The translations under genes and the position numbers were made by a program. Positions 4,436 to 42,277 of a DNA stretch of 42,470 nt are shown here, piece by piece. The notes beneath the pieces are model-generated. The model was not told where the DNA came from. It did no database searches and saw only the letters and a list, made by a program, of their open reading frames with translations. Numbering within the stretch: the stretch's first letter is position 1; each line of letters opens with the position of its first letter. Source of the stretch: Rhodospirillales bacterium (lineage in GTDB: Bacteria > Pseudomonadota > Alphaproteobacteria > UBA828); assembly GCA_028820995.1 (NCBI GenBank), contig JAPPHR010000111.1, positions 1 through 42,470 of the forward strand, given 5' to 3'.

Positions 4436-4960
4436 ATGGACCTTTGGCGTACGGAAAACTGGTTTGCGGTGTACACCAAGGCGTCTCAGGAGGAGTTGGC
4501 CGCGCGGAACATAGCGCGGCTCGGAATCGACGTCTTCGTCCCGAAAAGACTCGGCAAGAAGCGTGTCTGGAGGGTTTTCCACCCTATACTCAAGCCGCTG
4601 TTTCCCCGGTACGTGTTCGCCCGTTTTCGCCCGGATGTCCACCTGCATTCCATCAGGTACGCGCGGGGCGTTAGCTACGTGGTCCTTTTCGGAGATCTAC
4701 CGCTGCCCGTCGATGAGCGCATCATTCACGAGATTCAATCGAGGGTCAATTCCGAGGGATACGTCAGGTTGGATTCCGCGGCGTTCCGCAAAGGAGATCG
4801 CGTGCGGGTCGCGGAAGGTACGTTTCGTGGACTGACAGGGATGTTCGAGAGGGAGCTCAACAATCAGGATCGGGTGGTGCTGCTGCTCGATACGATCGAG
4901 TTTCAAGCGAGAGTCCTGGTCGAGAAACAGGGTTTCGAGCTGGCGCGAGCAGCGGTTTGA
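4436..4960 (+). CDS. Specialised NusG-family transcription antitermination factor (RfaH/LoaP/TaA/UpxY-like NGN+KOW paralog)
   Basis: 174 aa. NGN domain: WFAVYTKASQEELAARNIARLGIDVFVPK...PLFPRYVFARF. KOW domain: FRKGDRVRVAEGTFRGLTGMFERELNNQDRVVLLLD. It is not in a secE-nusG-rplK context. The in-frame ATG at 4358 would add a Cys-rich extension that looks unlikely. Confidence 0.85.
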   Translation: MDLWRTENWFAVYTKASQEELAARNIARLGIDVFVPKRLGKKRVWRVFHPILKPLFPRYVFARFRPDVHLHSIRYARGVSYVVLFGDLPLPVDERIIHEIQSRVNSEGYVRLDSAAFRKGDRVRVAEGTFRGLTGMFERELNNQDRVVLLLDTIEFQARVLVEKQGFELARAAV

Positions 4961-5020
4961 TCGTGCCACTGTCGATCGTGAGACGGAGAAGAACCGACGC
5001 TGCCGGCCCATGGGTCGAAA

Positions 5021-5032
5021 TGGCGGTAGCGC
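5021..5032 (+). promoter_or_regulatory. ops-like element GGCGGTAGCGCG in the leader downstream of the NusG paralog
   Basis: The full 8-nt ops core GGCGGTAG is present, and 11 of 12 positions match E. coli ops GGCGGTAGCGTG. It lies on the coding (non-template) strand, 61 nt after the NusG-paralog stop and 134 nt before the next gene. It is embedded in the palindrome GGCGGtagcgcgCCGCC. By eye this is the only GGCGGTAG in the window. Confidence 0.5.
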
Positions 5033-5165
5033 GCCGCCTACCCAGCTCGGGTCGAGCGTTCCGAGGCAAGCATCAGTAAGCGCATCGACCTGGACAGGCG
5101 CCCCTGTGGACCGGCAGTACGGGCCACTCCTTGTCGTACGGTGAGAGTTCCGGTCAGAGAGTGAA

Positions 5166-5984
5166 GTGACAGTGAACCTTCGCGACGTCTTCGGCACCTC
5201 AAAGCCGATCATCGGGATGATCAACCTCCTGCCGTTGCAGACGTATCCGAACTATCCCGGCATGGATTGCGTGCTGGAGGCGGCTCTGACCGACGCTCGG
5301 GCGCTGATCGAAGGGGGAATCGACGGGCTCCTGGTGGAGAACACCTTCAGTTTTCCTATCGATTCTGTGATCGAGCCCCATCTCGGCGCCGCGATGGCGA
5401 TCTGTACACACGAAGTGGTGAAAGCGTCGAGTGTTCCAGTGGGCGTTGTGGTGAACATGGAACCGGGGGACAGAACATCGCTGGGCGTGGCGGTCGCGGC
5501 CGGAGCGCGCTTCATTCGTTCGGTCAGCTTCAACGAGGCCGTGCTGACCTCGTTCGGCGTCTTTCAGGGCCTGCCGGGCGAGATGACGCGCTATCGCGCG
5601 CGTTTGGGGGCCTCCGATATTGCGGTGCTGGCCGACATTCAAGTGAAGTACACCACCATGATGGCCGAGCGCTCGCTCGAGCTTTCCGCTCAAGGGGCCG
5701 CCATGTCGGGCGTCGATGCGATCGTGGTGACCGGTCAGGTCACGGGTAACGCGCCGCCGGTGGAGACGGCCGCGCGTGCGAAGAACGCGGTCCGCAAGAC
5801 ACCGGTCATCATCGGCAGCGGCTTGGACATCGACAACGCTTCGGAATTGCTCTCCGTGGCCGACGGAGCCATCGTCGGCTCGTATTTCAAGAAAGACGGA
5901 GTCTACGCCAACCCCGTGGATCTCGAGAAGGTGCGACACGTGGCGGAAACGGCGCGCCGCCTCGAAAAAGCAGAGCGCGCATAA
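5166..5984 (+). CDS. BtpA/SgcQ-family TIM-barrel protein
   Basis: 272 aa. KPIIGMINLLPLQTYPNYPG...ALIEGGIDGLLVENTFSFP matches the BtpA-family N-terminal pattern. The start is GTG at 5166 (alternative GTG at 5172). Confidence 0.75.
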   Translation: MTVNLRDVFGTSKPIIGMINLLPLQTYPNYPGMDCVLEAALTDARALIEGGIDGLLVENTFSFPIDSVIEPHLGAAMAICTHEVVKASSVPVGVVVNMEPGDRTSLGVAVAAGARFIRSVSFNEAVLTSFGVFQGLPGEMTRYRARLGASDIAVLADIQVKYTTMMAERSLELSAQGAAMSGVDAIVVTGQVTGNAPPVETAARAKNAVRKTPVIIGSGLDIDNASELLSVADGAIVGSYFKKDGVYANPVDLEKVRHVAETARRLEKAERA

Positions 5985-5987
5985 GAT

Positions 5988-6683
5988 ATGCCGAAGACCT
6001 TGCCCGCCAGTCCGGATCCCGGCCGCCCTTACATCGTGATCATGTCCGCCGTCACACTCGACGGCAAGTTGACCGTCGGCCGCGGCGTCACGAGCGGCTC
6101 GCTCGGCGCGTTCGTCACGTACGAGGTCGTCGAGTTCCTGCACGACATGCGCGCTTCGGTCGATGCCGTGATGGTCGGCGGAAATACGATCGTGATCGAC
6201 AATCCGAGCCTGACGGTTCGGGCCGTCGACGGACGGAGCCCCGTGCGCGTCATTGTCGACCCCGAGGGCGCGGTTCCGCTGGAATCCAAGGTGTTTCATG
6301 ACAAGCAGGCGCCGACCATCGTAGCGGTCGCGAGCGAGACCGCCGACGAACGGAGAGCGGCGCTCCGAGATCTGGGCGTGAAGGTGGTGGTCGCTGGCGA
6401 CGGCAAGTTCGTGAATGTCGAGGTCTTGGTCAGAGCGCTGGCGAGGGAGGGAATCCGGTCCCTGCTGATCGAAGGGGGCGCGACGCTGAACTGGTTGACG
6501 ATTTCATCCGGCTTGGTGGACGAGTTGCAGATCATCAAACTCCCGATCGTGATCGGGGATCGGGGCTCACCGGGCTTTGCCGAGACTCCGGGAGGTGTCG
6601 AGGCGGCTCCCGCGAAGCTGGAGTGTACGCGGACGGAACGGCTGGGAAACTGCATGGTCCTGTATTGCCGGCGCACAGAATAG
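5988..6683 (+). CDS. RibD C-terminal-domain reductase (stand-alone diaminohydroxyphosphoribosylaminopyrimidine reductase-like / DHFR-fold)
   Basis: 231 aa. YIVIMSAVTLDGKLT, DAVMVGGNTIVIDNPSLTVR and SLLIEGGATLNWL are typical of RibD_C. It starts 3 nt after the BtpA stop. Confidence 0.8.
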   Translation: MPKTLPASPDPGRPYIVIMSAVTLDGKLTVGRGVTSGSLGAFVTYEVVEFLHDMRASVDAVMVGGNTIVIDNPSLTVRAVDGRSPVRVIVDPEGAVPLESKVFHDKQAPTIVAVASETADERRAALRDLGVKVVVAGDGKFVNVEVLVRALAREGIRSLLIEGGATLNWLTISSGLVDELQIIKLPIVIGDRGSPGFAETPGGVEAAPAKLECTRTERLGNCMVLYCRRTE

Positions 6684-6712
6684 GAGGGCTTCGAGGGAGC
6701 AGAGGAAAGACA

Positions 6713-7291
6713 ATGGCCTTCACCCGCATGGATCAGCTCACGGCCGGCATGGCCGACATTGACGTAATCGGCGATGCGCTCGCGAAGCGTCAGGCGGACA
6801 TGCCCGAGGTGATCCGGGGAATGCTCCGACAGCTCGCCTCGCATCAGGACGGGTTTCCGGTCGATCAGCTCGAACATTCCCTCCAGACCGCGACGCGCGC
6901 GGAGCGAGCCGGCGCGTCGGAAGAAATGATCGTCGCTTCCCTTTGCCACGACATCGGCAAAGCCGTTTCCGAGGTCAACCATGCGGCGATCAGCGCGGAG
7001 ATCCTGCGGCCGTTCGCTTCCACGGAAACGTACGAAATCATCCGCACGCACCAGGATTTTCAAGGGAAATACGTATATGCCTTCATGGGAAAGGATCCGG
7101 ACGCTCGTGAGCGATACGCGGACCGGCCTTGGTATCGATTGGCGTGCCAGTTCGCGGACGCTTGGGATCAAGCCGCTTTCGACCCGAATTACGACAGCTA
7201 TTCGCTGGAGCATTTCGGCCCCATGATCGATCGGGTTTTCGCGTCACCCAGACGTGATGTCCAGTCGTGGAGCGATTGCAATCGATTCTGA
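6713..7291 (+). CDS. HD-domain metal-dependent protein (COG4341-like, the family that contains PhnZ/TmpB-type diiron oxygenases)
   Basis: 192 aa. H...HD motif: LEHSLQTATRAERAGASEEMIVASLCHDIGK. C-terminal motif: FADAWDQAAFDPNYDSYSLEHF. RBS agaggaaaga lies upstream of the ATG at 6713. Confidence 0.7.
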   Translation: MAFTRMDQLTAGMADIDVIGDALAKRQADMPEVIRGMLRQLASHQDGFPVDQLEHSLQTATRAERAGASEEMIVASLCHDIGKAVSEVNHAAISAEILRPFASTETYEIIRTHQDFQGKYVYAFMGKDPDARERYADRPWYRLACQFADAWDQAAFDPNYDSYSLEHFGPMIDRVFASPRRDVQSWSDCNRF

Positions 7292-7329
7292 CGATCCAAC
7301 TGGGTGGCGACAGAGGAAGGAGACAACAC

Positions 7330-10300
7330 ATGCGTAGACACAGCTTGTTTTTTCGATACTGCGTCGTAATGATGCTCGTTACGGCAGCGATGGTCTTCAC
7401 GGCCATCGACAGCCCGGCCCAAACGACCGGCGAGATTTACGGGACCGTGACCGACATCTCTGACGCAGTCATTCCCGGAGCGGGCGTGGAAGCACAAAAC
7501 AGTGAAACCAACCTCACGCGAACCACGTTTACGGACGAGCAGGGGGGGTACCGCTTCACCCTGCTGCCCGTGGGAACTTACAGCGTGTCGGTTACGCTGC
7601 AAGGTTTCGCGCCGACACGGCAGGACGGGGTAGAGGTGCACGCAACCGAGGCCACGCCCGCCAACCTGGTGCTCGAAGTGGGGGAGATAACGCAGGAGGT
7701 CATCGTCAGCGCGACCCTGACGCCACAGGTGGACGTCACCACAGCCAGCGTGGGGAAGGTCGTCGAGGAGCAGCGGATCGTGGACCTTCCGTTGAACGGA
7801 CGAAACTTTCTGCAACTTGGGACGTTGCAGTCCGGCGTGGTTGCGGCTCCGGCGGGGATTCAGGCGACCGGTAGCGGAACCGACAACACCCCGGGCGGAA
7901 CAGCCAATCAATTCTCTGTCAACGGGATGAAAATCACGTCGAACAATCACCTGCTGGACGGGACCAATAACGTGGAAGCCATGTCGGGGTCGGCCATGGT
8001 CGTGCCGTCTCCTGACACGATCCAGGAATTCAGGATCCTGACCAACAACTACAGCGCGGAGCACGGCCGCGCTGGTGGCTCGGTCGTCACCGTGGTCACC
8101 AAGAGCGGCACGAACGCCGTCAACGGGACGCTCTGGGAGTTTCTCAGAAACGACGCCCTGGATGCGCGGAACTTCTTTGTGCCCGAAGTGCCGACGCTGA
8201 AGCAAAACCAGTTCGGCGGTACCATCGGTGGTCCGGTCGTCCAGGACCGGACCTTCTTCTTCGGCGGCTACGAAGGGTTTCGCCAGCGCAAGGGACGCCC
8301 GACCAACACCCTGGTCCCGTCGGTCAAGCTGCGCAATGGCGATTTCTCGGACTTGCCCGAAGCCAACCGACCCTCCCTGCCGTTCCAACCTGGAACCCGA
8401 TGGCCGGGTGACATGATTCCTCTGGAACATCACGATCCGGTTGCCAGGCGCGTCCTTGAATTGTGGCCGTTGCCCAACTCGGGACCGGACAACTGGGTGT
8501 CGACGCCCGTGGGCTCGCACGATCGCGACCAGGCCATGATCCGGATCGATCATTCGTCCATGGATGGCGCAAACATGCTGACCGGCCGGTACTTCCTGGA
8601 TCAGGGAACCCTGATACAGCCCAACGGGCTCTTCGGGCAGAGTCAGGGTTTCATCGATGCGCCGGGATTCGGTTTTTCCGATGCGAACCGGTTCCAGAAC
8701 TTTATGATGGCCGACACCCACATTTTCGGGGCCTCGATGATCAACGAGTTCCGCTTCGCATACGTCCGGTCGCGAGTCAACAGCGGGAAAGAGGTCAGCG
8801 ACATCAACAACCGGGATTTCGGCTTCACCTACCCCACGGCGGGCGAAGGAGGCGAGTTTTTTCCCGCGCACGGGATTCTCCCGTACTCCGGTCTCGGCTA
8901 TCCCGTTCGCGGCAACGATCGAATCAGCCGAACTCTACAGTTCTCCGACAACGTTTCGGTCAACAAGGGGCGGCACTCCTTGAAGTTCGGGGTGGACGTT
9001 CGCCGTTACAACATCTACAGTGACTTTCCATCGACGAATCACGGGAATTACAATTTCAATTTCGCCTTCGCCACCGGCGTCCCGTACGGTGATTTTCTGC
9101 TCGGTCAAACCAGCTTCTTCCTGCAGACGGCCGGCGCGTCGGTGAAGGAATTGTTCAAGACCGACATCTACCTGTACGTTCACGATACGTTTCGCATCAA
9201 CCCGAGATTCACCCTCAACTGGGGCTTGCGGTACGAGTTGTCGCCCGGATTTCTCGAGAAGAACGACCGGCAGTTCGCTCTCATTCAGGGCGTCAAGTCC
9301 TCGGTCAGCCCGACCTTGCCGGAGGGCGTGCTGCGCCCCGGCGATCCGGGTGTCGGCCGGCGGATCGTCGCCACCGACAAGAACAACTTCGGACCGCGGC
9401 TGGGCTTGTCCTGGGATCTTACCGGTGACGGCCGAACGAGCCTGCGCGCCGGCGGCGGCATCTTCTTCGACGACTCGGCGTTGATCTCGACCACGACGTT
9501 GCAGCAGCCGCCGGAGCTGCAGGCCTTCTACTTCGTCTTGCCGGCATTCGACCCAACCGCAAGCTACGCCGCGCCGTTTGGCGGAGCAAGCCCGATCGCC
9601 GGCGACCTGACGCCGCCGCTCCCGATTATCCCAGGATTGCCCGTCACCACGCTGGCCGTGGGCATGGAGTTGGGTAATGTCGGGCACTGGAATCTCACCC
9701 TGCAGCGCCAGTTGACCGAAGCGATGGCCCTCGAGGTGGCGTACGTCGGCAACTCCGGATGGAATCTCAATGGCATGACTAACCCTAACCAGGCCGTTTT
9801 CGGACCCAACGTCACACGCGACACGGCCGGCGCACGCCGCCCGATGCCGGCGCTCAGCGATGCCTTCATGATCGACGATGCGTTCCATTCGAGCTACCAC
9901 GGCTTGCAATCGACCCTGACCCACCGGTTCAGCCAGGGGCTCAGCTTCCAGGCGGCCTACACTTGGTCGAGGGCGATCGACAACGCGTCGACATTCGGGA
10001 CCTTCTTCAACATTCCTGGTCAACCGCTCGATCCCGGCCACGCTGCGGACCTGTCCAACGACAAGGGATTGTCGGCGTTTCATCAGTCGCATCGCTTGGT
10101 CCTCAGCTACATCTACGAGTTGCCGTTCCTGAGAGATCGATCCGACGCGCTCGGTCACGTCCTTGGCGGTTGGCGAGTAAACGGGATCACGTTGCTGCAG
10201 TCGGGCTCACCGTTCACCGTCCTCGATGGATCGGATCAATCGTTCGACGGCACTTCCGGGGACCGCCCCAATCTGATCGGGGATCCCAACAACGGGCCGA

Positions 10301-10608
10301 AGACGCCAGAGGAGTGGTTCGACACCGGGGCGTTCGAACGGGCCGTGGGCCCGGTCATGAACGGGACCGCCGGGCGAAACATCGTCTTAACCGACGGCAT
10401 CGTCAACTTCGACTTCGGGCTCACTAAGGTGTTTGAAATTAGCGAAGGCGTGGACCTCGAGTTCCGCTGGGAGGCGTTCAACTTGTTTAATCAAGCGAAC
10501 TTCAGTGTCCCGAAGAACAACCTGCAGGACGGAGCCGCCTTCGGCCGGGTATTACGCACCTCGACACCGGAGCGGATCATGCAGTTCGGTCTGAAGATCA
10601 TCTTCTAG
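7330..10608 (+). CDS. TonB-dependent outer-membrane receptor with N-terminal carboxypeptidase-regulatory-like domain
   Basis: 1092 aa. It has a signal peptide (MRRHSLFFRYCVVMMLVTAAMVFTAIDSPAQ) and a CarboxypepD_reg fold (GTVTDISDAVIPGAGVEAQNSETNLTRTTFTDEQGGYRFTLLPVGTYSV). A long beta-barrel region ends in the terminal aromatic QFGLKIIF. RBS ggaaggag precedes the ATG at 7330. Confidence 0.9.
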   Translation: MRRHSLFFRYCVVMMLVTAAMVFTAIDSPAQTTGEIYGTVTDISDAVIPGAGVEAQNSETNLTRTTFTDEQGGYRFTLLPVGTYSVSVTLQGFAPTRQDGVEVHATEATPANLVLEVGEITQEVIVSATLTPQVDVTTASVGKVVEEQRIVDLPLNGRNFLQLGTLQSGVVAAPAGIQATGSGTDNTPGGTANQFSVNGMKITSNNHLLDGTNNVEAMSGSAMVVPSPDTIQEFRILTNNYSAEHGRAGGSVVTVVTKSGTNAVNGTLWEFLRNDALDARNFFVPEVPTLKQNQFGGTIGGPVVQDRTFFFGGYEGFRQRKGRPTNTLVPSVKLRNGDFSDLPEANRPSLPFQPGTRWPGDMIPLEHHDPVARRVLELWPLPNSGPDNWVSTPVGSHDRDQAMIRIDHSSMDGANMLTGRYFLDQGTLIQPNGLFGQSQGFIDAPGFGFSDANRFQNFMMADTHIFGASMINEFRFAYVRSRVNSGKEVSDINNRDFGFTYPTAGEGGEFFPAHGILPYSGLGYPVRGNDRISRTLQFSDNVSVNKGRHSLKFGVDVRRYNIYSDFPSTNHGNYNFNFAFATGVPYGDFLLGQTSFFLQTAGASVKELFKTDIYLYVHDTFRINPRFTLNWGLRYELSPGFLEKNDRQFALIQGVKSSVSPTLPEGVLRPGDPGVGRRIVATDKNNFGPRLGLSWDLTGDGRTSLRAGGGIFFDDSALISTTTLQQPPELQAFYFVLPAFDPTASYAAPFGGASPIAGDLTPPLPIIPGLPVTTLAVGMELGNVGHWNLTLQRQLTEAMALEVAYVGNSGWNLNGMTNPNQAVFGPNVTRDTAGARRPMPALSDAFMIDDAFHSSYHGLQSTLTHRFSQGLSFQAAYTWSRAIDNASTFGTFFNIPGQPLDPGHAADLSNDKGLSAFHQSHRLVLSYIYELPFLRDRSDALGHVLGGWRVNGITLLQSGSPFTVLDGSDQSFDGTSGDRPNLIGDPNNGPKTPEEWFDTGAFERAVGPVMNGTAGRNIVLTDGIVNFDFGLTKVFEISEGVDLEFRWEAFNLFNQANFSVPKNNLQDGAAFGRVLRTSTPERIMQFGLKIIF

Positions 10609-10628
10609 CGGATGGCCTGACCCTGCCA

Positions 10629-10655
10629 CTGCCCCGCTGTCCGGGCAGCGGGCAG
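10629..10655 (+). terminator. GC-rich hairpin after the TonB receptor gene (no U-tract)
   Basis: ctgccccgctg-tccggg-cagcgggcag forms a roughly 10-bp stem with one bulged C, 21 nt after the TAG stop. It lies in the 235-nt gap before the next gene. Confidence 0.35.
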
Positions 10656-10843
10656 GGCGGCCGATTCACAGCGGCTGCGTTGTTCTATCGTGCGTTCAGG
10701 AGCATTCCTGGCTCGCTGTCAAAAAACTCGCGGTACGTGATCCAATCGAAGCGTGAGAGAATCCTGCAACTGGCAATGTCCGCTTCGAGTTCGCCCAATC
10801 GTCGGAGAGCGGGCGTCGCGAACAAGGTCCCGGAGGTGTCTGC

Positions 10844-12253: not shown

Positions 12254-12271
12254 TCGGAAGTGGGAGGACAC

Positions 12272-13090
12272 ATGTTGAATACCATGAGGAGCATTAGAAG
12301 CCTTTGGCTCTTGCTGCTCGGTTTACTGGCGTGGCAGGGATGCGAGGCTCAGGAAGCCGCCCGCACGCTCTACGTCGTGGAGCAGGAAGACATCGACCCG
12401 GCGCTCAACTCGCAGTACGAGCAGGGAGTTCAACTGGCGATCGCCGCCATGCAGAAGGCGAATCTGGGCTCGGACATGAGTTGGGGAGCGACCCAGTATC
12501 AGAGTTCCTATTTCTATGTGTTTCAGGTCGGATCGCTGGCGGAACTCGATCTGAATTCTCGCCAGGCGCGCGCGCGAAGCGCACAGCTCGCCACGGCGAT
12601 GGACGAGGCCACTTTCGCACAATTCGCGACCTTGACCACGCCGGCGATTCGCGGCAATCACCTCTCGGTGATGGAACCCGTGCCCGAGTTTAGCTACGCG
12701 CCCGCGGACACCGTAGTCGAGAATCCACAATTCAATCACGTGGTGACCTTGCGAGTGCAGGCGGCGCGCGCCGAACAATTCGAGCAGGCGACGGCCGAGA
12801 TCCTCGCTGCCATCCGGAAATCGGACTACCCGATCGGGTTCAACGCCTATCGTACGGTGATCGGCGACGGACGAGTCTTCTTCGATCGCGGACGGACCTA
12901 CTATTTCATCGCGCCCTTCGACACTCGATCCCAGTTCTACGAGGAGCATCCTTTCAACGAGGCATTGGCGGAAGCAGTGGGTGCGGAGCGAGCGGCTCAA
13001 CTGCTCGGCGATCAGTTGAACAGCCTTCTCTCGATGGAGACTCATGATTACCGGCGGCGGCCGGACATGGGCTTCCAGGCGACGAAATAG
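12272..13090 (+). CDS. Uncharacterised secreted alpha+beta protein with internal duplication (copy 1 of a family also found at 25811..26584)
   Basis: 272 aa. Signal peptide MLNTMRSIRSLWLLLLGLLAWQGCEA. It resembles the 25811 ORF along its whole length (e.g. AAIRKSDYPIGFNAYRTVIGDGRVFFDRGRTYYFIAPFDTRSQFYEEHPF versus AAARKSDYPLGWSAYRMVIGEGATFYGEGKVYCYVVPFDSPSQFYEQHSF). RBS gggagg precedes the ATG at 12272. Confidence 0.8.
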   Translation: MLNTMRSIRSLWLLLLGLLAWQGCEAQEAARTLYVVEQEDIDPALNSQYEQGVQLAIAAMQKANLGSDMSWGATQYQSSYFYVFQVGSLAELDLNSRQARARSAQLATAMDEATFAQFATLTTPAIRGNHLSVMEPVPEFSYAPADTVVENPQFNHVVTLRVQAARAEQFEQATAEILAAIRKSDYPIGFNAYRTVIGDGRVFFDRGRTYYFIAPFDTRSQFYEEHPFNEALAEAVGAERAAQLLGDQLNSLLSMETHDYRRRPDMGFQATK

Positions 13091-13150
13091 GTATTGGTCG
13101 CGGACCACACCACACGTAGGAGCCGGACCGGCGTATCGGACCCGATCTCG

Positions 13151-15849: not shown

Positions 15850-15964
15850 ATGCCATGCCCGCATCGGAGAAGAGATGGGCGAGTACGTGGCCGAGCCTCG
15901 GAACTGCCCCGTTCGGATCAAGCAGGACGGGTCGCACCACTATTTCGAGAAGGAACGGTAAAAG

Positions 15965-16256
15965 TGGGCCCTGTCGCGCGAAGTCGATTGCAATCGGCAG
16001 CGAAGGTCGAGCAGGATCGAGCCGTTGCAAGAGATCTACGTTGCCTGCCATGCTGCTGCGAATGGACGAGATCGTCGGCTATCTGAATCAATTTCATCTT
16101 GGCGAGATTCCCAAGGATGCCGAGAAGCTGCTCCACATGGGATTGTCGTCAATGGAGGTGGCTGCAGCCATCGAGCTGCCGGGTAAGCGCGACGAGTTGG
16201 GAGTGTTCGCCGCCGAACGCTTTCGGATCGTCGAACTCGGAACCGGGCAGCCTTAG
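15965..16256 (+). pseudogene. Small conserved protein, copy 1 (paralog of 23930..24274). The N-terminal half is disrupted; an intact 68-codon ORF remains at 16050..16256.
   Basis: The C-terminal 63 aa are about 40% identical to copy 2 (MLLRMDEIVGYLNQ...LLHMGLSSMEVAAAIE...FAAERF versus MVPRMGAIMEYLNK...LFHMTLSLAEVAPAVE...FPAERF). The N-terminal homology (KWALSREVDCNRQRRSSRIEPLQEIYVAC versus GWALPTERERNHKRINSQMSEIQALYDTM) lies in a different frame. It is directly preceded by TAA at 15959..15961. Confidence 0.55.
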
Positions 16257-16302
16257 CACGACCCGCGCGGTTACGCCGCGCCTTGTTGAAGGAGGATTCT
16301 AC

Positions 16303-23929: not shown

Positions 23930-24274
23930 ATGGCCAAGCCAAGTTTGCCCAATGAGTTCAATGATCTGGAGCCTTTTGCCGGTTGGGCGCTGCCGACAGA
24001 GCGCGAACGCAACCACAAGCGGATTAACAGCCAGATGTCCGAGATTCAGGCGCTGTACGACACGATGGTGCCCCGCATGGGAGCGATCATGGAATACTTG
24101 AACAAGCTTCCCATAGACGGCATGCCGGAGGATGCCCAGCGGCTATTCCATATGACCCTGTCGCTCGCTGAAGTGGCGCCCGCCGTGGAGTTTTATCAGC
24201 AGCCGCGGGTTATCGACGGTTTCCCCGCGGAACGGTTCATCCCGATCGACGTGCCCGACATGACGCCTACGTAA
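23930..24274 (+). CDS. Small conserved protein of unknown function, copy 2 (intact, 114 aa)
   Basis: Intact ORF lying 18 nt after the Amidohydro_2 gene and 30 nt before the amine oxidase. It is a paralog of the 15965..16256 locus. It has no signal peptide and no motif that I recognise. Confidence 0.75.
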   Translation: MAKPSLPNEFNDLEPFAGWALPTERERNHKRINSQMSEIQALYDTMVPRMGAIMEYLNKLPIDGMPEDAQRLFHMTLSLAEVAPAVEFYQQPRVIDGFPAERFIPIDVPDMTPT

Positions 24275-24304
24275 AAGTCTCGGCAGACCCATTCCCTGTC
24301 ATTG

Positions 24305-27940: not shown

Positions 27941-28354
27941 ATGATGAAAGCCTCTGCATCCGCGAAGATACGCGCCCGGCTGCACCATCCGGTCATCGAC
28001 GCCGACGGACACATGATCGAGTTCGAGGGTGGCATCCTGGATTCGCTGCATGGGGTCGGCGGGGATGGTCTGGTGAAACGGTTCAATTCCTGGACTTCCG
28101 GGACCCTGTTTCGGTGGAACCGCATGTCGCCCGAACAGCGCTGGGAGCACAGAGTGGCTCGCAACGTATGGTGGGGCGTCCCGACCCGGAATACCTTGGA
28201 CCGCGCCACCGCGACCTTGCCCCGCCTTCTGTATCAAGGGCTGGATGATATGGGTCTGGACCTCGTGATGCTGTATCCGACACTGGGTCTGCCGCTGGCC
28301 GACATCGAGGACGAGGAGCTTCGCGAGGCGCAGAAGCTACTGAGCGGATCGTAG
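27941..28354 (+). pseudogene. Truncated Amidohydro_2 paralog (N-terminal 130 codons or so only)
   Basis: HPVIDADGHMIEFEGGILDSL...WWGVPTRNTLDRATATLPRLLYQGLDDMGLDLVMLYPTLGLPLADIEDEELR parallels residues 18-130 of the 484-aa gene at 22457. It then ends after 9 unrelated codons. Only 52 nt remain before the next gene. Confidence 0.75.
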
Positions 28355-34250: not shown

Positions 34251-34280
34251 ATGTCCTGTCGATGCGGGGAGCCTTGACCG

Positions 34281-35762: not shown

Positions 35763-36143
35763 GTGGAGTTCCGGGTCTGGATGTCGTGTTCGTGGGGCTG
35801 GGTAATCTGTCCCAGTCGATGGGTTGCATGGAGCAATTCGAAGACCCTGGATTGCTCAGCAACGTTCGCAATGTGTTGACCCGGATCGAAGACAGTGGCA
35901 TAATTGCAACGGTGAACTCGGAATCCGTAGAAGGGGCGAAACGCTGGATTACTTAAGGGGTGAAGATACTGAGCTGAGCCGTTGACATTTCGGTCATGAC
36001 CTGGGCGCTGGAGCGCATCGCGTCAAGCTTCGGTTCACTCGGAAAGCAGGCGGCGGAAAACGTGACGTTCCAGTTCCGCCGCGGATTTTCCGGTATCAAT
36101 TCTGAGTACACGAGGTCACAGTAAAGCTGGAAGGGAGACAACA

Positions 36144-37229
36144 ATGGCTATCTGTCTATCGCACGGGGGAACGACGATCTATTCTTCTGAATCCCCTTCG
36201 AACGACTTGCTGATTGCAACTGTCGGGGGGGTTGTCTTCTGCAAGCGGGATGGGCTGGGCAGCGCCTGGAGAGTCGACAAGACAGGTCTTGAGAAGCATC
36301 ACGTGATCGCCTTGGTGATCGAGCCGCTCAGCCAGACCATCTTCGCTTCCATGCACGACGGGGGAGTGGCGGCGAGCACGGATTTCGGTGAGACCTGGGA
36401 GTTTCGCAAGAACGGCCTAGCTTACGACAACGTCTATAGCCTGACCTGCAGCCGATCGGGGGACACGGTCCGGCTGTACGCCGGTACGGAACCGGCGCAC
36501 ATCTACTACAGCGACGACATGGGCGGAACCTGGACCGAGCTGCCCTCGCTGAGAACGGTGCCGAGCGTGTCGAAGTGGACCTTTCCGGCCCCGCCTCATG
36601 ACGCGCACGTCATCAACATTACGGTCGATCCGAAGGAAGCGAACGTCATCTATGCCTGCGTGGAACAAGGTGGGGTTTTCAAGAGCATGGACGCGGGCGA
36701 AACCTGGCAGGAACTTCAGGGTTTCAATCACGATTGCCATCGACTGCTGATCCTGTCGTCCGACACAAGCACGCTGTATTTGCCCACCGGGTACGGGTTC
36801 TACCGGAGCTACGACAGAGGCGAGACGTGGGAGAATCTCGGAGGGCGGGTCGCGCGTCTCGGTTATCCCGACCCCATGGTGATTCATCCCACCAACGAGA
36901 AGCTGATGTTTCTGTCCGGGGGAGAGAACGACCCCTATCATTGGATGCAGAGCAAGTCCGCCAATCCGCGCATAGCCCGGAGTCGCGACAGCGGGGAAAC
37001 CTGGGAAGTGCTGGGTAACGGGATGCCCGAAAGACTGGACGCGAGCTTCGAGGCCATGATCCTGGAGGCCTGGAACGGGTCCTGCGAGCTTTACGCCGGG
37101 AACACGAACGGGGAAATCTACTACAGCAACGATGAAGGAGACAGTTGGTCGAAGGCGATCGAAGGAATCCCGGCAGTCTCCAAGACGATTCACCACACCA
37201 TCCTGCGCGCCGATCTGAGCTTCGACTAG
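36144..37229 (+). CDS. BNR/Asp-box repeat beta-propeller protein (sialidase/Ycf48-like fold)
   Basis: 361 aa with six SxDxGxTW-type Asp boxes: STDFGETW, SDDMGGTW, SMDAGETW, SYDRGETW, SRDSGETW, SNDEGDSW. No signal peptide is visible. Confidence 0.85.
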   Translation: MAICLSHGGTTIYSSESPSNDLLIATVGGVVFCKRDGLGSAWRVDKTGLEKHHVIALVIEPLSQTIFASMHDGGVAASTDFGETWEFRKNGLAYDNVYSLTCSRSGDTVRLYAGTEPAHIYYSDDMGGTWTELPSLRTVPSVSKWTFPAPPHDAHVINITVDPKEANVIYACVEQGGVFKSMDAGETWQELQGFNHDCHRLLILSSDTSTLYLPTGYGFYRSYDRGETWENLGGRVARLGYPDPMVIHPTNEKLMFLSGGENDPYHWMQSKSANPRIARSRDSGETWEVLGNGMPERLDASFEAMILEAWNGSCELYAGNTNGEIYYSNDEGDSWSKAIEGIPAVSKTIHHTILRADLSFD

Positions 37230-37355
37230 CACGAGCGACCGTAAGCAGGTCTCGATCAGACGCATGTTCAGGGGACTTTTCCATCCGGAGGCGGCGAACG
37301 GCCTCGAGAGGCCGCGGTCCGACCCGTCAGGTTCAACCGAACAAGGAGTAGAATC

Positions 37356-39170
37356 ATGCTTGGAACGATCTCGCGACTCGTAATCTCTCTGGTACTTGCG
37401 GCGGCGTGGGCAATCGTGTTGGGTGTCCAGGCGGCGGCTCAGACACCGGATCAGGACATTTCGAGAATCACCGGCACGGTCCGCGATAACCGGGGCGACC
37501 CCGTCGTTGGCGCCATGATCAAGGTGCGATGCGATTGCCTGGGAGCCAGCGAGGTTGCCGTCTTCACGGATCAGGCGGGCAGCTATCGGACTCCAGAGCT
37601 GGGTCCGGGTATCTCCGCCGGTGATATCACGATCACCAGCCGCCAAGTAGGATACGAATCGAGCGAGCAGAGTCCGTCCGCGACGTCGGCGGGGGCGGCC
37701 GGTGCTGTGCAGGTCGACTTCACACTCACTCCCATCGACAACGTTGCGGACCAAGTGCCGGGATCAGCCTGGATATCGCTCATGCCCGACACGAACGCCC
37801 GCCGTCGCTTGGTTTACAAGTGTTCGGACTGTCATGAGACTCCGGGCTCCCGGGTGAAGGAATTCGCCAGCAGGCTCGAAGGGCTGACCGTGGATCAGCG
37901 CGAAAAGGCTTGGCGCGCGTCCATCGAATTTATGAGAGCTGCGCTGTTCACAATGACGACCCGAAGCTTCGCGCCTACGGACGAGGAAGTCCATAGATTG
38001 CGGTGGGACATCGATCCGGCCGCGGAGGATTTCCAGATCTACGTAAAACCCGAGAACAGCCGTCACAACCAGGATGACGAAGACATCATCGCGCCGTTTC
38101 TGGCCGAGCACATGCCGACCGACTTCAGCACGTACAGCGTGAGCGACTACCGTGAAACGTTCAACGAAGGAGGCGCGCTCGGAGCCAACGAGAACACCTA
38201 CTTCAAGGTTTACGACTTGCCGCGCGTCTCCCTTGTGCGGGAGGTGACGACAGTCGATGGATCCCGCCATGTGTGGGGGGTCGATAACTTGAAGAACCGT
38301 CTGCTGAAGCTGGATCCAGACACCGGGGAGCAGGAGTGGTACAAAACGCCCTCGAGGCCGTCGGGGCCCCACTCGGTATGGCCGGACACTGAGGGGAACC
38401 TGTGGGTAACGCTCGAGGAGAGCGGAGAGTTGGCAATATTTGATCCGAGTACCGAGAAGTGGGGAGACAGTTACCTGCTGGGAGCCGGAGGCTCCGGGAT
38501 CGTCCATGACATTTGCCAGGACGACGTCCACAACGTGTCGTTCGACGCCGAAGGCAGAATCTGGATGACGTTTACGGGGTTGAACAAGCTCGGAAGCCTG
38601 GATCCGGAGACCGGCGAGGTCAAACTCTACACTATGCCACTGTCGGAAGTGGCCTCGATGCAAACCTTGCTTTATGGATGCGTGATGACCTCGGACGACA
38701 ACATCTGGTTTTCCCAGATCGGCGGTGTCGTGGGCGAGTTCAACACCGAAACCCTCAGGGTAGAGACGATTCTTCCATTCACCGAAGGAGCCGGTCCACG
38801 ACGACTCGCCGTCGGGAAGAACGATATTCTTTATATCCCATTGTTCGGACAAGGTCAGTTGGTCGTCTTTGACACTATCGCGGGCAAGGAACTGGGGAGG
38901 TATGATCTTCCCGACACGGTCGCGGCGCCGTATAGCGCGACCTGGGATCCCGAAAGGGAGGCCGTCTGGGTCAGCTCCAACTCGTCGGATCGAGTCTTTC
39001 GTTTCGATGCCAAGACAAACGAGTTCACGCAGTATCCCTTGCCTCTAGGTCCGGCGCTGCTGCGCTTGATCCTTCTCGACTATCAGACTGGAGATCTATG
39101 GCTGCCGTATTCCACGTTTCCCGTGGACGACAACCCGAGCGTGCTCGTCATGATGCACCCCGGCGATTGA
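37356..39170 (+). CDS. Secreted CarboxypepD_reg-domain / CxxCH / beta-propeller (streptogramin-lyase-like, COG4257-type repeats) protein
   Basis: 604 aa. Signal peptide LVLAAAWAIVLGVQAAAQ. CarboxypepD_reg region ITGTVRDNRGDPVVGAMIKV...TDQAGSYRT. A single haem-c motif is present (KCSDCHE). Repeated blades follow (NLWVTLEESGELAIFDP, RIWMTFTGLNKLGSLDP, NIWFSQIGGVVGEFN, ILYIPLFGQGQLVVFD, AVWVSSNSSDRVFRFD). Confidence 0.8.
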   Translation: MLGTISRLVISLVLAAAWAIVLGVQAAAQTPDQDISRITGTVRDNRGDPVVGAMIKVRCDCLGASEVAVFTDQAGSYRTPELGPGISAGDITITSRQVGYESSEQSPSATSAGAAGAVQVDFTLTPIDNVADQVPGSAWISLMPDTNARRRLVYKCSDCHETPGSRVKEFASRLEGLTVDQREKAWRASIEFMRAALFTMTTRSFAPTDEEVHRLRWDIDPAAEDFQIYVKPENSRHNQDDEDIIAPFLAEHMPTDFSTYSVSDYRETFNEGGALGANENTYFKVYDLPRVSLVREVTTVDGSRHVWGVDNLKNRLLKLDPDTGEQEWYKTPSRPSGPHSVWPDTEGNLWVTLEESGELAIFDPSTEKWGDSYLLGAGGSGIVHDICQDDVHNVSFDAEGRIWMTFTGLNKLGSLDPETGEVKLYTMPLSEVASMQTLLYGCVMTSDDNIWFSQIGGVVGEFNTETLRVETILPFTEGAGPRRLAVGKNDILYIPLFGQGQLVVFDTIAGKELGRYDLPDTVAAPYSATWDPEREAVWVSSNSSDRVFRFDAKTNEFTQYPLPLGPALLRLILLDYQTGDLWLPYSTFPVDDNPSVLVMMHPGD

Positions 39171-39189
39171 TGACTCCCGTGGTCGATGA

Positions 39190-39360
39190 GACTTGTCCGA
39201 GAGGCAAGGAGTCGGAGAGGCGCCCACCGACGATCAATCCGGACGACGCGTCAATGACGGAGTCGACATCCACGTAACCGATCCACGTCACCACATAGGT
39301 CCGATCCGCGACTAGGAGCGGACCCGGACTTGCAGCGGCCCATGCCCTGCCATCCCACAT
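39190..39360 (-). mobile_element. IS3-family transposase (rve integrase core) remnant
   Basis: The minus-strand peptide AAASPGPLLVADRTYVVTWIGYVDVDSVIDASSGLIVGGRLSDSL matches the IS3 OrfB pattern PN.lW.aDiTYv.t..G.vY...viD..SR.ivGw..s.sm. Only about 45-55 codons are present, with no DDE continuation and no inverted repeats. Confidence 0.6.
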
Positions 39361-39484
39361 CGCGTATTCGGCGCACTGGAATCCTGCTCGCCATGCGCGT
39401 CCCCTCGCGATTCTCCTGCTTCAAGACTGCAGCCAATTGTCGATGCGATCAACGACGCAGTGTATGGATGATACGGAGGGCGAC

Positions 39485-40339
39485 ATGAGTGTCGCACTCA
39501 TCACTGGAACGAGCACCGGCATTGGTCGTTCGACAGCGATCGAGCTGGCAAAAAACGGTTACCGCGTATTCGCTTCGATGCGAGATCCAACGGCGGCAGA
39601 CCCGGAGATGGTTTCCTCGGGAAAGGTGGAAGTAATCCGGCTCGACGTCAATGACAACCTTTCGATGGAGTCGGCCGTGGCCGGCGTGCTCGAATTGACT
39701 GGAAGGATCGATATTCTGGTCAACAATGCCGGAATCGGGATCGGAGGCTCGGTCGAGGAAACGACCGAAAAAGACCTGCGTGACATCATGGAGACCAACT
39801 TCTTCGGTGCTTGGCGCATGATGCAGTTGGTGCTGCCCGGCATGCGCATTCGAGGTGGCGGGCACATCGTGAACGTGACCTCGGTAGCCGGCAGGTTTGT
39901 CATGGCGTTTCAGGGCCCGTACGCGTCCTCGAAACATGCGCTGGAGGCGGCCAGCGAAGCCCTCGCGCAGGAGGTATTTCGATACAACGTGCGGGTTTCG
40001 ATCATTGAGCCCGGTGCGATCAAGACGCCCATTTTTGACAAGGCAATGGCGCTGGAGCGACCGACGAAATCACCCTATGTGCAATCTTTTAACCGGCTCA
40101 TGGAGGTTTTCGAGAAGAGGCTCCAGGACCCGTCTCCGCCGGAATTGGTCGCCGCGACGATTCGACGCGCCATCGAGACCGATCAGCCGAAGTTACGTTA
40201 TCTCGTCGGGGAAGATGCCGAACTGTGGGTGGCAGGTCGGGCCAAAATGTCGGATGAGGAGTACGTGGCAGCTGGCGGAAAGATGAGTTCCGGGGAATTC
40301 AAGAACTGGTATGAGGAAAAATTTAGGATGGAACTGTGA
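39485..40339 (+). CDS. Short-chain dehydrogenase/reductase (classical SDR)
   Basis: 284 aa from MSVALITGTSTGIGRS. Motifs NNAGIG and catalytic YASSKHAL. RBS ggaggg precedes the ATG at 39485. Confidence 0.88.
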   Translation: MSVALITGTSTGIGRSTAIELAKNGYRVFASMRDPTAADPEMVSSGKVEVIRLDVNDNLSMESAVAGVLELTGRIDILVNNAGIGIGGSVEETTEKDLRDIMETNFFGAWRMMQLVLPGMRIRGGGHIVNVTSVAGRFVMAFQGPYASSKHALEAASEALAQEVFRYNVRVSIIEPGAIKTPIFDKAMALERPTKSPYVQSFNRLMEVFEKRLQDPSPPELVAATIRRAIETDQPKLRYLVGEDAELWVAGRAKMSDEEYVAAGGKMSSGEFKNWYEEKFRMEL

Positions 40340-40396
40340 TTCTCACCCTCCTGAACCGAACGGTTTTCCGGTCACCAACTCCGCAGGTGGTGTGAC

Positions 40397-41428
40397 ATAA
40401 GACTCACAGGCAAAAAGGCGCTTGTCACGGGAGCGACCGGCTTCATCGGGGGCCGGCTTGCAGAACGACTGAAGAAGGAAGAGAACGCCGAAGTACGGAC
40501 CCTAGTCCGCTCACCAGAGAAAGCCCGCAGCCTCGCATCGATCGGCATCGAGATCGTGGAAGGCGATGTCACGGATCCCACGTCCGTTCGCCGAGCCATG
40601 GCGGGCTGCTCCCTGGCTTTCCACTGCGCCGCGCTTATGCACGACGCCGGCGCCACGTTTGAGGGTTTTCGTCAGGTCAATGTCGGCGGGACGGCGAATG
40701 TTCTGGACGCAGCTACGGATGCGGGCATCGAGTTGCTGGTGTACATCAGCAGCATTGCCGTCTACGGTATCGATCCCAAGGCACATACAGATGAGACCGG
40801 CCTATTCCGGACAACGGGAATCCCGTACTCCGACTCCAAGATCGAGGCGGAACGGCTGGTCTACCGGCATGCGGAGCGAACGAATCTTCCATTGGTCATT
40901 ATCCGGCCAGCCAACGTTTACGGGCCCCGGTCCTCGTTTTGGACGCTCGGCTTGCTGACCATGATCGATGCCGGCAGGCTCACGCTCATCGATGACGGGA
41001 GCGGGAAGTCCAACCATCTCTATATTGACAACCTAGTCGATGCCATCCTTGCGGCTGCCCGGACGGACTCGGCGGTAAACGAGGATTTCATCATCAGCGA
41101 CGGTGCGGAGACTCCCTGGAGTGAGTTCCTCGGACACTATGCAAAAATGGCTGGCCGAAGTTCTCTGCCCAGCATTTCGCTCACCCGGGCGAAGTGCAGG
41201 GCCTTCCTGTCCGAGTTCGGTACTCGAGTTGTTGGCGGAACGCCGAGACTGACCCGTATCGAAGTCCGCTGTTGGACGCAATCCGGCATATTTGACATTT
41301 CGAAGGCGCGACGCGTGCTGAACTATGCACCGCGCGTATCATTGAACGAAGGGATGAAAAAAACCGAGCACTGGCTGCGCGAGATCGGTCATATCGCCCG
41401 AGCCTCCTCCGCTCGGGGGAAGTCTTAG
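40397..41428 (+). CDS. NAD-dependent epimerase/dehydratase (extended SDR) lacking a canonical start codon (ATA at the expected start)
   Basis: The open frame from 40355 encodes (I)RLTGKKALVTGATGFIGGRL...YSDSKIEAE... The first in-frame ATG/GTG/TTG is the GTG at 40556, which lies after the Rossmann motif. AGGTGG at 40385..40390 sits 6 nt upstream of ATA at 40397..40399. Confidence 0.7.
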   Translation: MRLTGKKALVTGATGFIGGRLAERLKKEENAEVRTLVRSPEKARSLASIGIEIVEGDVTDPTSVRRAMAGCSLAFHCAALMHDAGATFEGFRQVNVGGTANVLDAATDAGIELLVYISSIAVYGIDPKAHTDETGLFRTTGIPYSDSKIEAERLVYRHAERTNLPLVIIRPANVYGPRSSFWTLGLLTMIDAGRLTLIDDGSGKSNHLYIDNLVDAILAAARTDSAVNEDFIISDGAETPWSEFLGHYAKMAGRSSLPSISLTRAKCRAFLSEFGTRVVGGTPRLTRIEVRCWTQSGIFDISKARRVLNYAPRVSLNEGMKKTEHWLREIGHIARASSARGKS

Positions 41429-41467
41429 CTCGAGGCCGCCTGGATCTCCGGGGCCGGAGGAGAGTGG

Positions 41468-42277
41468 ATGTTTGACAAGGGGCTAGAGAGAGAAAGAAGG
41501 GTCGGACGCCTGTTCGGCGGCGACGGGCGGAGCTTGGTCGTCGCGATCGACCATGGCGGCGGTATCAACGTGTATCCGGAGTTGGCCGATCCCGGGCTGA
41601 TCATCGCCCAGGTCGCCGAAGGTGGCGCCGACGCGATCCTAGCGAACCCGGGCGCGGTTCGACGCTACGCCACCGAATTGAAGTCTTTGGGAGTGATCTT
41701 GAGGATGGATGGAGGCGCGTCGCTGCTCAGCAAAACGCCCGAGTCGAGACTTCTCTTCTCGGTTGAGGACGCTCTGCGGCTGGGGGCGGATGCAGTAGCA
41801 TGCATGGGCTTTCCGGGCACGCCGTTGGAGGGGCACACTTTGGCCAACCTCGCAAACCTGGCGGGCCAGTGCCAGAACTGGGGCATGCCCTTGATGGCGG
41901 AGGTGCTGCCAGGAGGTTTCACCCACATGGAGCTCCGCACTCCGGAGAATGTGCAGCTGGCAGCCCGTATCGGTGTGGAGTTGGGAGCCGACCTGATCAA
42001 GACCGAGTTCACGGGATCGGAGGACAGCTTCAAAGCCGTCGTGGAGAACTGTTTTCGACCCGTGCTGGTGCTTGGCGGAAGCAAGTTGGATGACGAGAGT
42101 GCGCTGTTCAGGATGGTCAGGAGCGCTTTGAACGCCGGGGCCGTAGGGGCTGTCATCGGCCGGAACGTGTGGGGTCATCGTAACCCGCGAGCGTTCGTCG
42201 AGGCATTGTCGCATCTCGTTCACGGTGACGCGTCGGTCGAGGAGACCCTGGAGTTTTTCAAGAGCGCGAGCGCATGA
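41468..42277 (+). CDS. Class I aldolase of the DhnA/FbaB/LsrF (DeoC-like) family
   Basis: 269 aa. VVAIDHG, GADAILANPG, ILRMDGG, Schiff-base lysine context GADLIKTEF, and VIGRNVW. Confidence 0.85.
   Translation: MFDKGLERERRVGRLFGGDGRSLVVAIDHGGGINVYPELADPGLIIAQVAEGGADAILANPGAVRRYATELKSLGVILRMDGGASLLSKTPESRLLFSVEDALRLGADAVACMGFPGTPLEGHTLANLANLAGQCQNWGMPLMAEVLPGGFTHMELRTPENVQLAARIGVELGADLIKTEFTGSEDSFKAVVENCFRPVLVLGGSKLDDESALFRMVRSALNAGAVGAVIGRNVWGHRNPRAFVEALSHLVHGDASVEETLEFFKSASA

Follow-up and report, generated by a model that had tools for sequence, protein, structure and literature searches.

A putative ops-recruited, RfaH-like NusG paralog at the head of a long catabolic and transport gene array

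Contig JAPPHR010000111.1 of GenBank assembly GCA_028820995.1, deposited as a Rhodospirillales bacterium and analysed here over its full 42,470 nucleotides (the window), carries an array of 31 genes, all on the + strand between positions 4436 and 42277. The first of these (4436-4960) encodes a 174-residue paralog of the transcription factor NusG, with an NGN and a KOW domain, and 62 nt past its stop codon lies a 12-nt element, GGCGGTAGCGCG (5022-5033, + strand), that agrees with the Escherichia coli ops element, GGCGGTAGCGTG, in 11 positions out of 12. From the resemblance of the protein to RfaH, the conservation of the element and the conserved order of the genes that follow, we consider it likely that the paralog is a cis-encoded, RfaH-like processivity factor, recruited through ops, for an array of catabolic and transport genes. 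The closest public relatives of the window are complete-chromosome metagenome-assembled genomes labelled Bryobacterales (Acidobacteriota), in which the paralog is 98% identical and the flanking DNA about 93-96% identical.

What kind of NusG-family protein is encoded by the head gene? Its product, for which a start at MDLWR is common to homologs, matches the Pfam NusG NGN domain with E 4.8e-14. Against the NCBIfam models it scores 99.6 bits for RfaH (curated cutoff 144.5), 76.8 for UpxY (100), 44.3 for LoaP (125) and 34.1 for NusG (135.7); the RfaH equivalog models are TIGR01955 and NF006534, the second of which gives 80.6 bits against a cutoff of 124, and the others are NF033644 (UpxY), NF033641 (LoaP) and TIGR00922 (NusG). 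Residues 9-167 align to positions 1-158 of the 159 in the RfaH model, and the NusG match covers part of its model only. Among solved structures the best match is E. coli RfaH, over the full length (residues 7-164 of the query) at about 30% identity (E 1e-16), followed at a distance by the best NusG (E 5e-6) and, weakly, by PrfaH (9ik0, E 0.01). Searched against 1.84 billion representative proteins, the sequence has 1522 relatives at E<=1e-10. An alignment was made of the window protein and the nearest 87 of the 50%-identity representatives; of its 88 members, 77 match RfaH at E<=1e-20, 19 match UpxY and none matches NusG or LoaP; the best RfaH match has E 3.5e-37 and, as estimated from the E-value, no member reaches the 144.5-bit cutoff. 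By these scores the protein is a specialised NusG paralog, not a housekeeping NusG, that belongs to a sub-threshold, RfaH-like cloud of sequences and falls outside the curated RfaH, UpxY, LoaP and NusG families.

The first-pass annotation, made from the sequence alone, had already called this protein a specialised NusG paralog with an NGN+KOW architecture, outside any secE-nusG-rplK context, and both points stand. That architecture is what speaks for the opposite reading, that the protein is the housekeeping NusG, or a decaying duplicate of it, found by chance beside catabolic genes. We give this reading a negligible probability, since the NusG match amounts to 34 bits, and partial coverage, against a cutoff of 135.7, and the protein has a lysine at the position of RfaH K10, where NusG has phenylalanine. 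The neighbours are an acyl-CoA dehydrogenase fragment on one side and a BtpA-family gene on the other, whereas the secE-nusG-rplK context is invariant for housekeeping nusG (PMC7593976). Nor does the gene look like one in decay: intact frames at 55-98% identity accompany the same cargo in relatives.

A pairwise alignment with RfaH shows that residues K10, Q13, R23, R73, W4, Y54, F56, H65, I93, F130 and R138 are retained, with K10, R23 and R73 corresponding to K15, R28 and R77 of the paralog. The RfaH side chains that contact ops are K10, H20, R23 and R73 (Zuber 2018; PMC5995543), with R16 and T72 also implicated (Belogurov 2010; PMC2871177); K10 and R73 are the strongest determinants of DNA binding, and Y54 is essential (PMC2871177). 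An AF2 model built on an alignment of 13 sequences (mean pLDDT 82.6) has an NGN domain and a five-stranded β KOW domain, and Foldseek matches it to fully recruited RfaH (8phk, E 6e-12) and to NusG. Among the residues of autoinhibition, I93 and F130 are retained and E48 is replaced by lysine (K53), and the KOW domain is modelled as a β-barrel, not as an α-hairpin. In E. coli RfaH, loss of E48 gives constitutive, ops-independent activity. The β KOW and the E48 to K change are suggestive, and no more than that, of a paralog that is not autoinhibited.

The second line of evidence is the leader. The 205 nt between the paralog and the first cargo gene (4961-5165, + strand) are conserved around the ops element only, with a mean identity of 45% outside the ops block in an alignment of four lineages. 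GGCGGTAGCGCG is the sole site in the window within one mismatch of ops, and the larger gaps further along the array hold none within two mismatches. For comparison we used relatives whose paralogs are 98, 83, 81, 78, 75 and 55% identical to that of the window, together with L029, which has an amidohydrolase 87% identical (L-numbers denote loci of relatives retrieved for comparison). Every close relative has GGCGGTAGC on the same strand, 46-62 nt past the paralog stop codon; the exact E. coli 12-mer is present in L011, L012, L013 and L029, and L016 has GGCGGTAGCCTG. When the relatives are aligned, a conserved 21-mer, ATGGGTCGAAATGGCGGTAGC (5010-5030, + strand), takes in the first nine ops bases, and the pattern ATGG..nGAAAnGGCGGTAGC is invariant, or nearly so, in eight distinct sequences. 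A 12-nt ops element in the leader of the target operon (GGCGGTAGnnTG) is a hallmark of RfaH, and it is present at the window locus. A second GGCGGTAGC, about 600 nt past the leader ops and within the coding sequence of the BtpA-family gene, is seen in the 81-83% lineage (L003, 11201; L013, 9171) and in L029 (948) only, and is absent from the window.

The element is conserved at the bases that matter in E. coli. There G4, G5, A7 and G8 are essential for the recruitment of RfaH and C3 and T6 are important, and a C3:G8 hairpin in the non-template strand shows G5 and T6 to K10, H20, R23 and R73 (PMC5995543); in the window and its close relatives C3 to G8 are invariant. ops is also an example of the consensus pause pattern (PMC7819879), which the window element would fit, position -1 being still a pyrimidine despite T11C, and positions +1 and -10 both being G. 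The first-pass annotation, which did not notice the element, offered no mechanism of recruitment; ops supplies one, and it points to an RfaH-type mechanism rather than one of UpxY or LoaP type. JUMPstart (Rfam RF01707), the 39-nt element in which ops is embedded in gammaproteobacterial leaders, gave no match in 4300-5300 at E<=10, and by this comparison the window leader has the ops core in common with it and nothing more. No conserved promoter could be located 5′ of the paralog, in a region that does not align between lineages.

Could the conserved GGCGGTAGC block be something other than a loading site, such as a protein operator (for IclR, for example), part of a promoter, the start of a leader peptide or the 3′ arm of a LoaP-style RNA hairpin? 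In favour of such a role, the paralog lacks the H20, Q24, R16 and T72 of RfaH, an ATG 12 nt before ops is conserved, and a hairpin between ops and an upstream GCUGCC is predicted. The ATG opens a frame (5010-5144 in the window) that reads MGRNGGS in most relatives, with some of the substitutions synonymous; it has no Shine-Dalgarno sequence, varies from 15 to more than 90 codons and shows nothing conserved past codon 7, and a leader peptide is unsupported. The hairpin shows no compensatory changes, and its invariant ops side defeats a covariation test. A sigma-54 promoter, suggested by TGGCGG...GC, would need a GG-N10-GC arrangement, and on inspection of the aligned leaders neither the spacing nor the -12 GC is kept in L015 and L006. 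An operator for IclR fits poorly with a block that is equally conserved in lineages with and without an IclR gene. More generally, a 12-of-12 match to E. coli ops beside an RfaH-like gene in four relatives is very unlikely to be unrelated, and ops-like sites also follow distant paralogs, as described below. Taken together, the alternatives to a loading site seem improbable.

Conserved synteny of the paralog with its cargo, which had been proposed as a check on the first-pass annotation, is found in relatives down to 55% paralog identity. The order paralog, ops, BtpA, RibD_C reductase, HD-domain protein, TonB-dependent receptor, amidohydrolase, a gene with no family match, MFS transporter, amidohydrolase is kept in L003, L013 and L014, whose paralogs are 81-83% identical to that of the window, and in L029 and L016. 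L004 and L015 (78%) keep the paralog-ops-cargo order, with two extra genes inserted past ops, and L006 (55%) has another first module (MaoC dehydratases) followed by SnoaL, amidase, HD, MFS, amidohydrolase and receptor genes. L029 runs on for at least 21 kb through Rieske oxygenases, an amidase, a Rieske ferredoxin and amidohydrolases, in an order similar, though not identical, to that of the window. Judged by these alignments, the paralog-ops-cargo order is conserved across Bryobacterales and other Terriglobia metagenome-assembled genomes. The middle of the array is rearranged between lineages, and gene order past about 15 kb varies. On the contig of L004, 60-80 kb downstream of its paralog, a further stretch (L030) carries + strand MR_MLE, two AMP-binding CoA ligase, cupin, zinc-dependent alcohol dehydrogenase and FGGY genes in the order of the window. 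In this genome either the array is about 80 kb long or its modules are mobile cassettes. About 300 kb away on the same contig, L025 is a further + strand run drawn from these enzyme families, and neither a paralog nor an ops site lies in the 10 kb upstream of it. One remote + strand cargo run in the L004 genome is broken by an rve transposase.

More distant relatives place the arrangement in a wider setting. Those at 38-40% identity head clusters of MbtH, nonribosomal peptide synthetase, peptidase and receptor genes; in this clade AACATGCGGTAG or AACATGCGGCAG lies upstream of the paralog, not downstream (L008, 9964; L009, ~1620), and the proteins have histidine at the position of RfaH K10. At 27-37% identity, in SAR86, marine Alphaproteobacteria and soil metagenomes, TGCGGTAGC occurs 62-225 nt downstream of the paralog in six of 27 loci, against 0.42 expected (P 5.5e-6): L022 (8611), L043 (5544), L044 (3714), L051 (439), L018 (8722) and L034 (5683). 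Some of these are in AT-rich marine genomes with a GC content of only 26-34%. The downstream genes were scanned for five of the six, and three (L022, L043 and L051) head polysaccharide genes encoding Wzz, RmlA-like, GDP-mannose dehydratase, Polysacc_synt_2 and PIG-L proteins; L034 heads a redox enzyme and an ABC transporter, and L018 a peptidase S51. This suggests that the succession of paralog, ops and long operon recurs widely outside enterobacteria, and that it is the cargo in Bryobacterales that is unusual. In a survey of 1,122 RfaH neighbourhoods (PMC7593976), the genes reported are those for envelope polysaccharide, secretion, H-NS, toxin-antitoxin systems and secondary metabolites; catabolic arrays are not among them, and Proteobacteria account for about 95% of known RfaH proteins. 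The survey and the polysaccharide-heading distant relatives both agree with the initial remark that this class of cargo is not normally linked to NusG paralogs, and a full-text literature search found no paper in which a NusG paralog is connected with Acidobacteria or with a catabolic operon.

The co-directional array itself is real. Matches to Pfam or NCBIfam back 27 of the 31 + strand genes; the other four (12272-13090, 23930-24274, 25811-26584 and 27941-28354) match no family, yet gene callers predict all of them in near-identical contigs. The ten longest - strand open reading frames within the array have no Pfam match at E<=0.01 and look like antisense shadows of a region with 60% GC (59-65% over the window). 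For 30 further genes all to share one strand has a probability of about 1e-9 if strand choice is 50:50, and of 2e-5 under a 70:30 bias. The window yielded neither a tRNA gene nor any Rfam family at the gathering threshold.

With revised gene starts, 22 of the 30 gaps are no longer than 70 nt, and one is a 4-nt overlap. The first-pass annotation had held that every supportable gene of the array is on the + strand and that most gaps are under 70 nt, and neither statement needs changing. Its list of larger gaps does: it left out the leader (4961-5165), where ops is housed, and it gave the gap before the amidase as 15850-16049. The amidase most likely starts at 16303, with GAAGGAGG upstream, a length of 507 residues and the start as called in relatives, and the gap is therefore 15850-16302 (453 nt). 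This spacer contains a 133-codon open reading frame (15855-16256) with no family match, and gene callers place 63- and 68-residue frames in it in near-identical contigs. The larger gaps past the leader measure 235, 453, 124, 381, 126 and 314 nt. The interval 40340-40555 is coding and not a true gap. An epimerase/dehydratase frame (40355-41428), open from 40355, takes in the whole Pfam profile, the match beginning at residue 22 of the frame. It has no ATG, GTG or TTG that could serve as a start ahead of 40556, a position 45 residues into the domain; this could be due to a rare start codon, to a mutation of the start codon or to a sequencing error.

How might the system operate? Polymerase starting upstream of the paralog gene would transcribe the paralog first; in sister lineages, where an IclR gene precedes the paralog, the promoter is probably in the spacer between the two. 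At 62 nt past the stop codon, GGCGGTAGC in the non-template strand, where both -10 and +1 are G and -1 is a pyrimidine, would pause the polymerase and display a small G5/T6 loop, to be read by the NGN domain of the paralog through its equivalents of RfaH K10, R23 and R73. The paralog would then stay on the elongation complex in place of housekeeping NusG, suppressing pausing and Rho-dependent polarity and possibly coupling the polymerase to the lead ribosome. The long array, with its TonB-dependent receptor, two MFS transporters and genes for the catabolism of amides and N-heterocycles, would in this way be expressed to its distal end. The nature of the protein, the ops element with its conservation and the synteny with this cargo are shown by the sequences, and from these we infer pausing, loading, the exclusion of NusG, resistance to Rho and reach along the 38 kb.

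Several observations weigh against an ops-recruited, RfaH-like factor of this kind. The protein is below the cutoffs of both curated RfaH models, and several DNA-contact or antipausing residues are changed (R16 to L21, H20 to N25, Q24 to L29 and T72 to A76). The HTT motif of RfaH (H65-T66-T67), needed for antipausing through the β gate loop (PMC2871177), is H69-L70-H71 in the paralog, the histidine alone being retained. The C-terminal domain of the AF2 model has a pLDDT of only 64-80, and an alignment as shallow as its 13 sequences is compatible with an α state. The window element has C at position 11, where the E. coli evidence concerns another substitution, T11G, which is strongly defective. 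Seven gaps of 124-453 nt leave room for internal promoters, and a promoter-like site at 35876 would permit one. Consensus promoters and terminators occur in the array at the frequency expected by chance from shuffled sequence, and for terminators this leaves the need for antitermination hypothetical.

An alternative is that the paralog and ops serve only a short proximal unit, from BtpA to the receptor (5.2-10.6 kb), the rest of the array being independently promoted operons that share an orientation through strand bias or repeated insertion. Directly past the receptor stop codon lie GC-rich hairpins (10621-10678, + strand; -46.5 kcal/mol, z -2.1), and the equivalent site holds hairpins that are stronger, and unrelated in sequence, in L003 (16437-16470, z -3.3) and L004 (18228-18265 and 18292-18326, z -7.9). 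The second stem in the window, with GTTGTTCTAT, is flagged as terminator-like, the hairpins of the three lineages being mostly without a clear U-tract. Such a structure could be a candidate internal attenuator that is passed with the help of the factor, or a stem that stabilises the RNA. A proximal unit is also favoured by the six large gaps listed above, by the variation in gene order past about 15 kb, by cargo modules found 60-80 kb from a paralog (L030) or with neither paralog nor ops in the 10 kb upstream (L025), and by the promoter-like site. The latter, TTGACC-17-(TG)CATAAT (35876-35904, + strand), matches at 10 of 12 positions with an extended -10 TG, is the best + strand match in the array and is located in the 381-nt gap (35763-36143); such matches are no commoner than in shuffled sequence, and we treat it as a lead only.

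Against so restricted a role, 22 of the 30 gaps are short or overlapping, no - strand gene interrupts the 38 kb, and there is no enrichment of consensus promoters or terminators. Where RfaH-type factors are known, their action extends over entire long operons (PMC7593976), and a hairpin past a highly expressed receptor gene is the sort of site that needs an antiterminator. We regard restriction to the proximal unit as unlikely on balance, though it is the most serious of the alternatives considered. For the ops-recruited factor that we prefer, an effect is likely at least to 10.6 kb and plausible to 35.8 kb, but doubtful over 36.1-42.3 kb, where the membership of the distal five genes in a paralog-dependent unit is uncertain. 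The proposal in the first-pass annotation of a dedicated processivity factor for a super-operon is thus partly supported, with the paralog, ops and syntenic cargo behind it, whereas a single 38-kb transcript is overstated, given the seven gaps of 124-453 nt, the post-receptor hairpin, the site at 35876-35904 and the rearranged middle.

The cargo, all on the + strand and assigned from Pfam and NCBIfam, falls into three parts. The proximal module (5166-10608) encodes a BtpA/SgcQ-family protein, a RibD_C-type reductase, an HD-domain protein and a TonB-dependent receptor of 1092 residues (7330-10608). The main catabolic and transport part (10844-35762) encodes six amidohydrolases, an amidase, a Rieske ferredoxin and oxygenase α subunit and a flavin amine oxidase, together with two MFS transporters, an enolase-superfamily enzyme, two acyl-CoA ligases, a cupin, a zinc-dependent alcohol dehydrogenase, an FGGY kinase and the four proteins without a family match. 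The distal five genes (36144-42277), set off by gaps of 381, 126 and 314 nt, encode a BNR/sortilin-like protein, a CarboxypepD_reg and β-propeller protein, an SDR, the epimerase and a DeoC/LacD-type aldolase. This complement indicates uptake and breakdown of nitrogen-containing organic compounds, of amide or N-heterocycle type. Scores exceed the NCBIfam cutoff for two subfamilies only, PRK07235 of amidases and PRK06187 of acyl-CoA ligases (496.9 against 476); the remaining hints, to Xaa-Pro dipeptidase-like, TRZ/ATZ hydrolase-like and acid-sugar dehydratase-like enzymes, are sub-threshold, and hence no specific substrate can be named. The flavin amine oxidase (24302-25789) has a twin-arginine-like SRRDLL near codon 10, which suggests periplasmic export, and its start is called differently in near-identical contigs (428, 486 and 495 residues). 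A guess that 35765-35953 is the remnant of an aldolase gene was withdrawn, there being no Pfam match at E<=1.

Why does the array have no conventional regulator? Its absence from the array, noted at the outset, is borne out by Pfam and NCBIfam scans, which find no regulator family there, but it appears to reflect a loss specific to the lineage. Directly upstream of the paralog, on the same strand, an IclR gene is present in the 78% lineage (L004, 8976-9764) and in the 55% lineage (L006, 7457-8329), the two being 62% identical to each other. Searching the window, including 3965-4435, by tblastn with both of these orthologs gave no IclR remnant, and the gene is also absent, leaving no remnant, from L003 and from L011-L014. 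Since two divergent lineages have IclR 5′ of the paralog, the order IclR-paralog-ops-cargo is probably ancestral, and the window lineage has probably lost IclR.

The left border of the array bears, from the gene fragments found there, the marks of a rearrangement scar. On the - strand at 283-3964 is a leucine/isovalerate-type cluster, with HMG-CoA lyase, enoyl-CoA hydratase and carboxyltransferase genes and a truncated acyl-CoA dehydrogenase (3665-3964) of which the C-terminal 99 residues alone remain (Pfam Acyl-CoA_dh_1, profile positions 78-146). The enoyl-CoA hydratase gene can be read through only with a frameshift near 1736-1800. These degraded genes could be true pseudogenes or could reflect indel errors in long reads. 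At the same junction L011 (4423-7498) has an extra 3 kb with acyl-CoA dehydrogenase fragments and a fragment of an rve integrase, and transposase genes (DUF772, Y1_Tnp) are found 98 bp upstream of the paralog in L003 and 1.2 kb upstream in L004, with IclR between.

The known role of specialised NusG paralogs is as switches for capsules, lipopolysaccharide, pili, toxins and antibiotics, chiefly among Proteobacteria, Bacteroides and Firmicutes. The Acidobacteriota are abundant, hard to culture and important in the turnover of soil carbon and nitrogen. We propose, tentatively and with rather less confidence than we have in the factor itself, that RfaH-type recruitment through a GGCGGTAG non-template loop is an old, cross-phylum module that in soil Acidobacteriota has become attached in cis, probably in a non-autoinhibited form, to giant (at least 30 kb), inducible, nitrogen-scavenging arrays. 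If so, the extent to which the pathway is expressed would be determined by a processivity factor, in place of an IclR-type repressor or alongside one, and control by NusG paralogs would extend from virulence, envelope and antibiotic genes to the mainstream carbon and nitrogen catabolism of abundant soil bacteria. The locus itself suggests that the recognition code of ops and RfaH is conserved far beyond the organisms that defined it. Very long catabolic arrays of soil bacteria may likewise depend on control of elongation, which matters both for predicting expression from metagenomes and for heterologous expression.

Comparison with known systems brings out what is shared and what is distinctive. 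UpxY, which controls Bacteroides capsules, and LoaP, which controls Firmicutes polyketides, are like the window protein in being specialised NusG paralogs at or next to the long operon under control. UpxY works through the 5′ untranslated region that precedes its gene, LoaP through a leader RNA hairpin (see also PMC12691694). The window protein, in contrast, scores below both cutoffs (76.8 against 100 and 44.3 against 125) and lower than it does against RfaH, and the conserved element is a DNA ops of RfaH type, downstream of the paralog gene. The plasmid-borne RfaH paralogs PrfaH and ActX also stand in cis at the head of a long operon (PMC7819879), with conjugative transfer as the cargo, on enterobacterial plasmids. 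PrfaH has an ops-like binding site near its own gene (PMC11880322), which is found downstream of the promoter of prfaH, whereas the window ops is past the stop codon of the paralog.

E. coli RfaH with ops offers the closest parallel. RfaH is the best sequence match of the paralog and has the same two-domain NGN+KOW structure, and in both cases the leader of a long operon contains a 12-nt element, with 11 of 12 positions shared by the window, 12 of 12 by four relatives, and C3 to G8 invariant. There are also differences. The paralog is below the family cutoff, about 30% identical and has its relatives in the Acidobacteriota; its counterparts of H20, Q24, R16, T72, T66/T67 and E48 are replaced; and its KOW domain is modelled as a β-barrel, in place of the autoinhibitory α-hairpin of RfaH. 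RfaH is a stand-alone gene that acts in trans on lipopolysaccharide, capsule, haemolysin and tra genes, whereas the paralog gene stands in cis, immediately before ops, and has catabolic and transport genes as its cargo.

Finally, a 2026 preprint by Tabilo-Agurto et al. (PMC13015549) describes 'monomorphic' RfaH homologs, both predicted and tested, that are encoded inside long operons or next to them. The window protein resembles these in its AF2 model, which has the β KOW of the active state, in its altered E48, the position changed in the constitutive E48A variant too, and in heading a long operon, which fits recruitment in cis. Those homologs passed an RfaH hidden Markov model and neighbour lipopolysaccharide or secretion operons, whereas the window protein is sub-threshold and its cargo catabolic. 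A further difference is that the window locus strictly keeps a canonical ops despite the predicted absence of autoinhibition. Recognition of ops and a predicted non-autoinhibited state would thus occur together here, a combination that bears on the proposed route from cis-acting, non-autoinhibited paralogs to the trans-acting, metamorphic RfaH.

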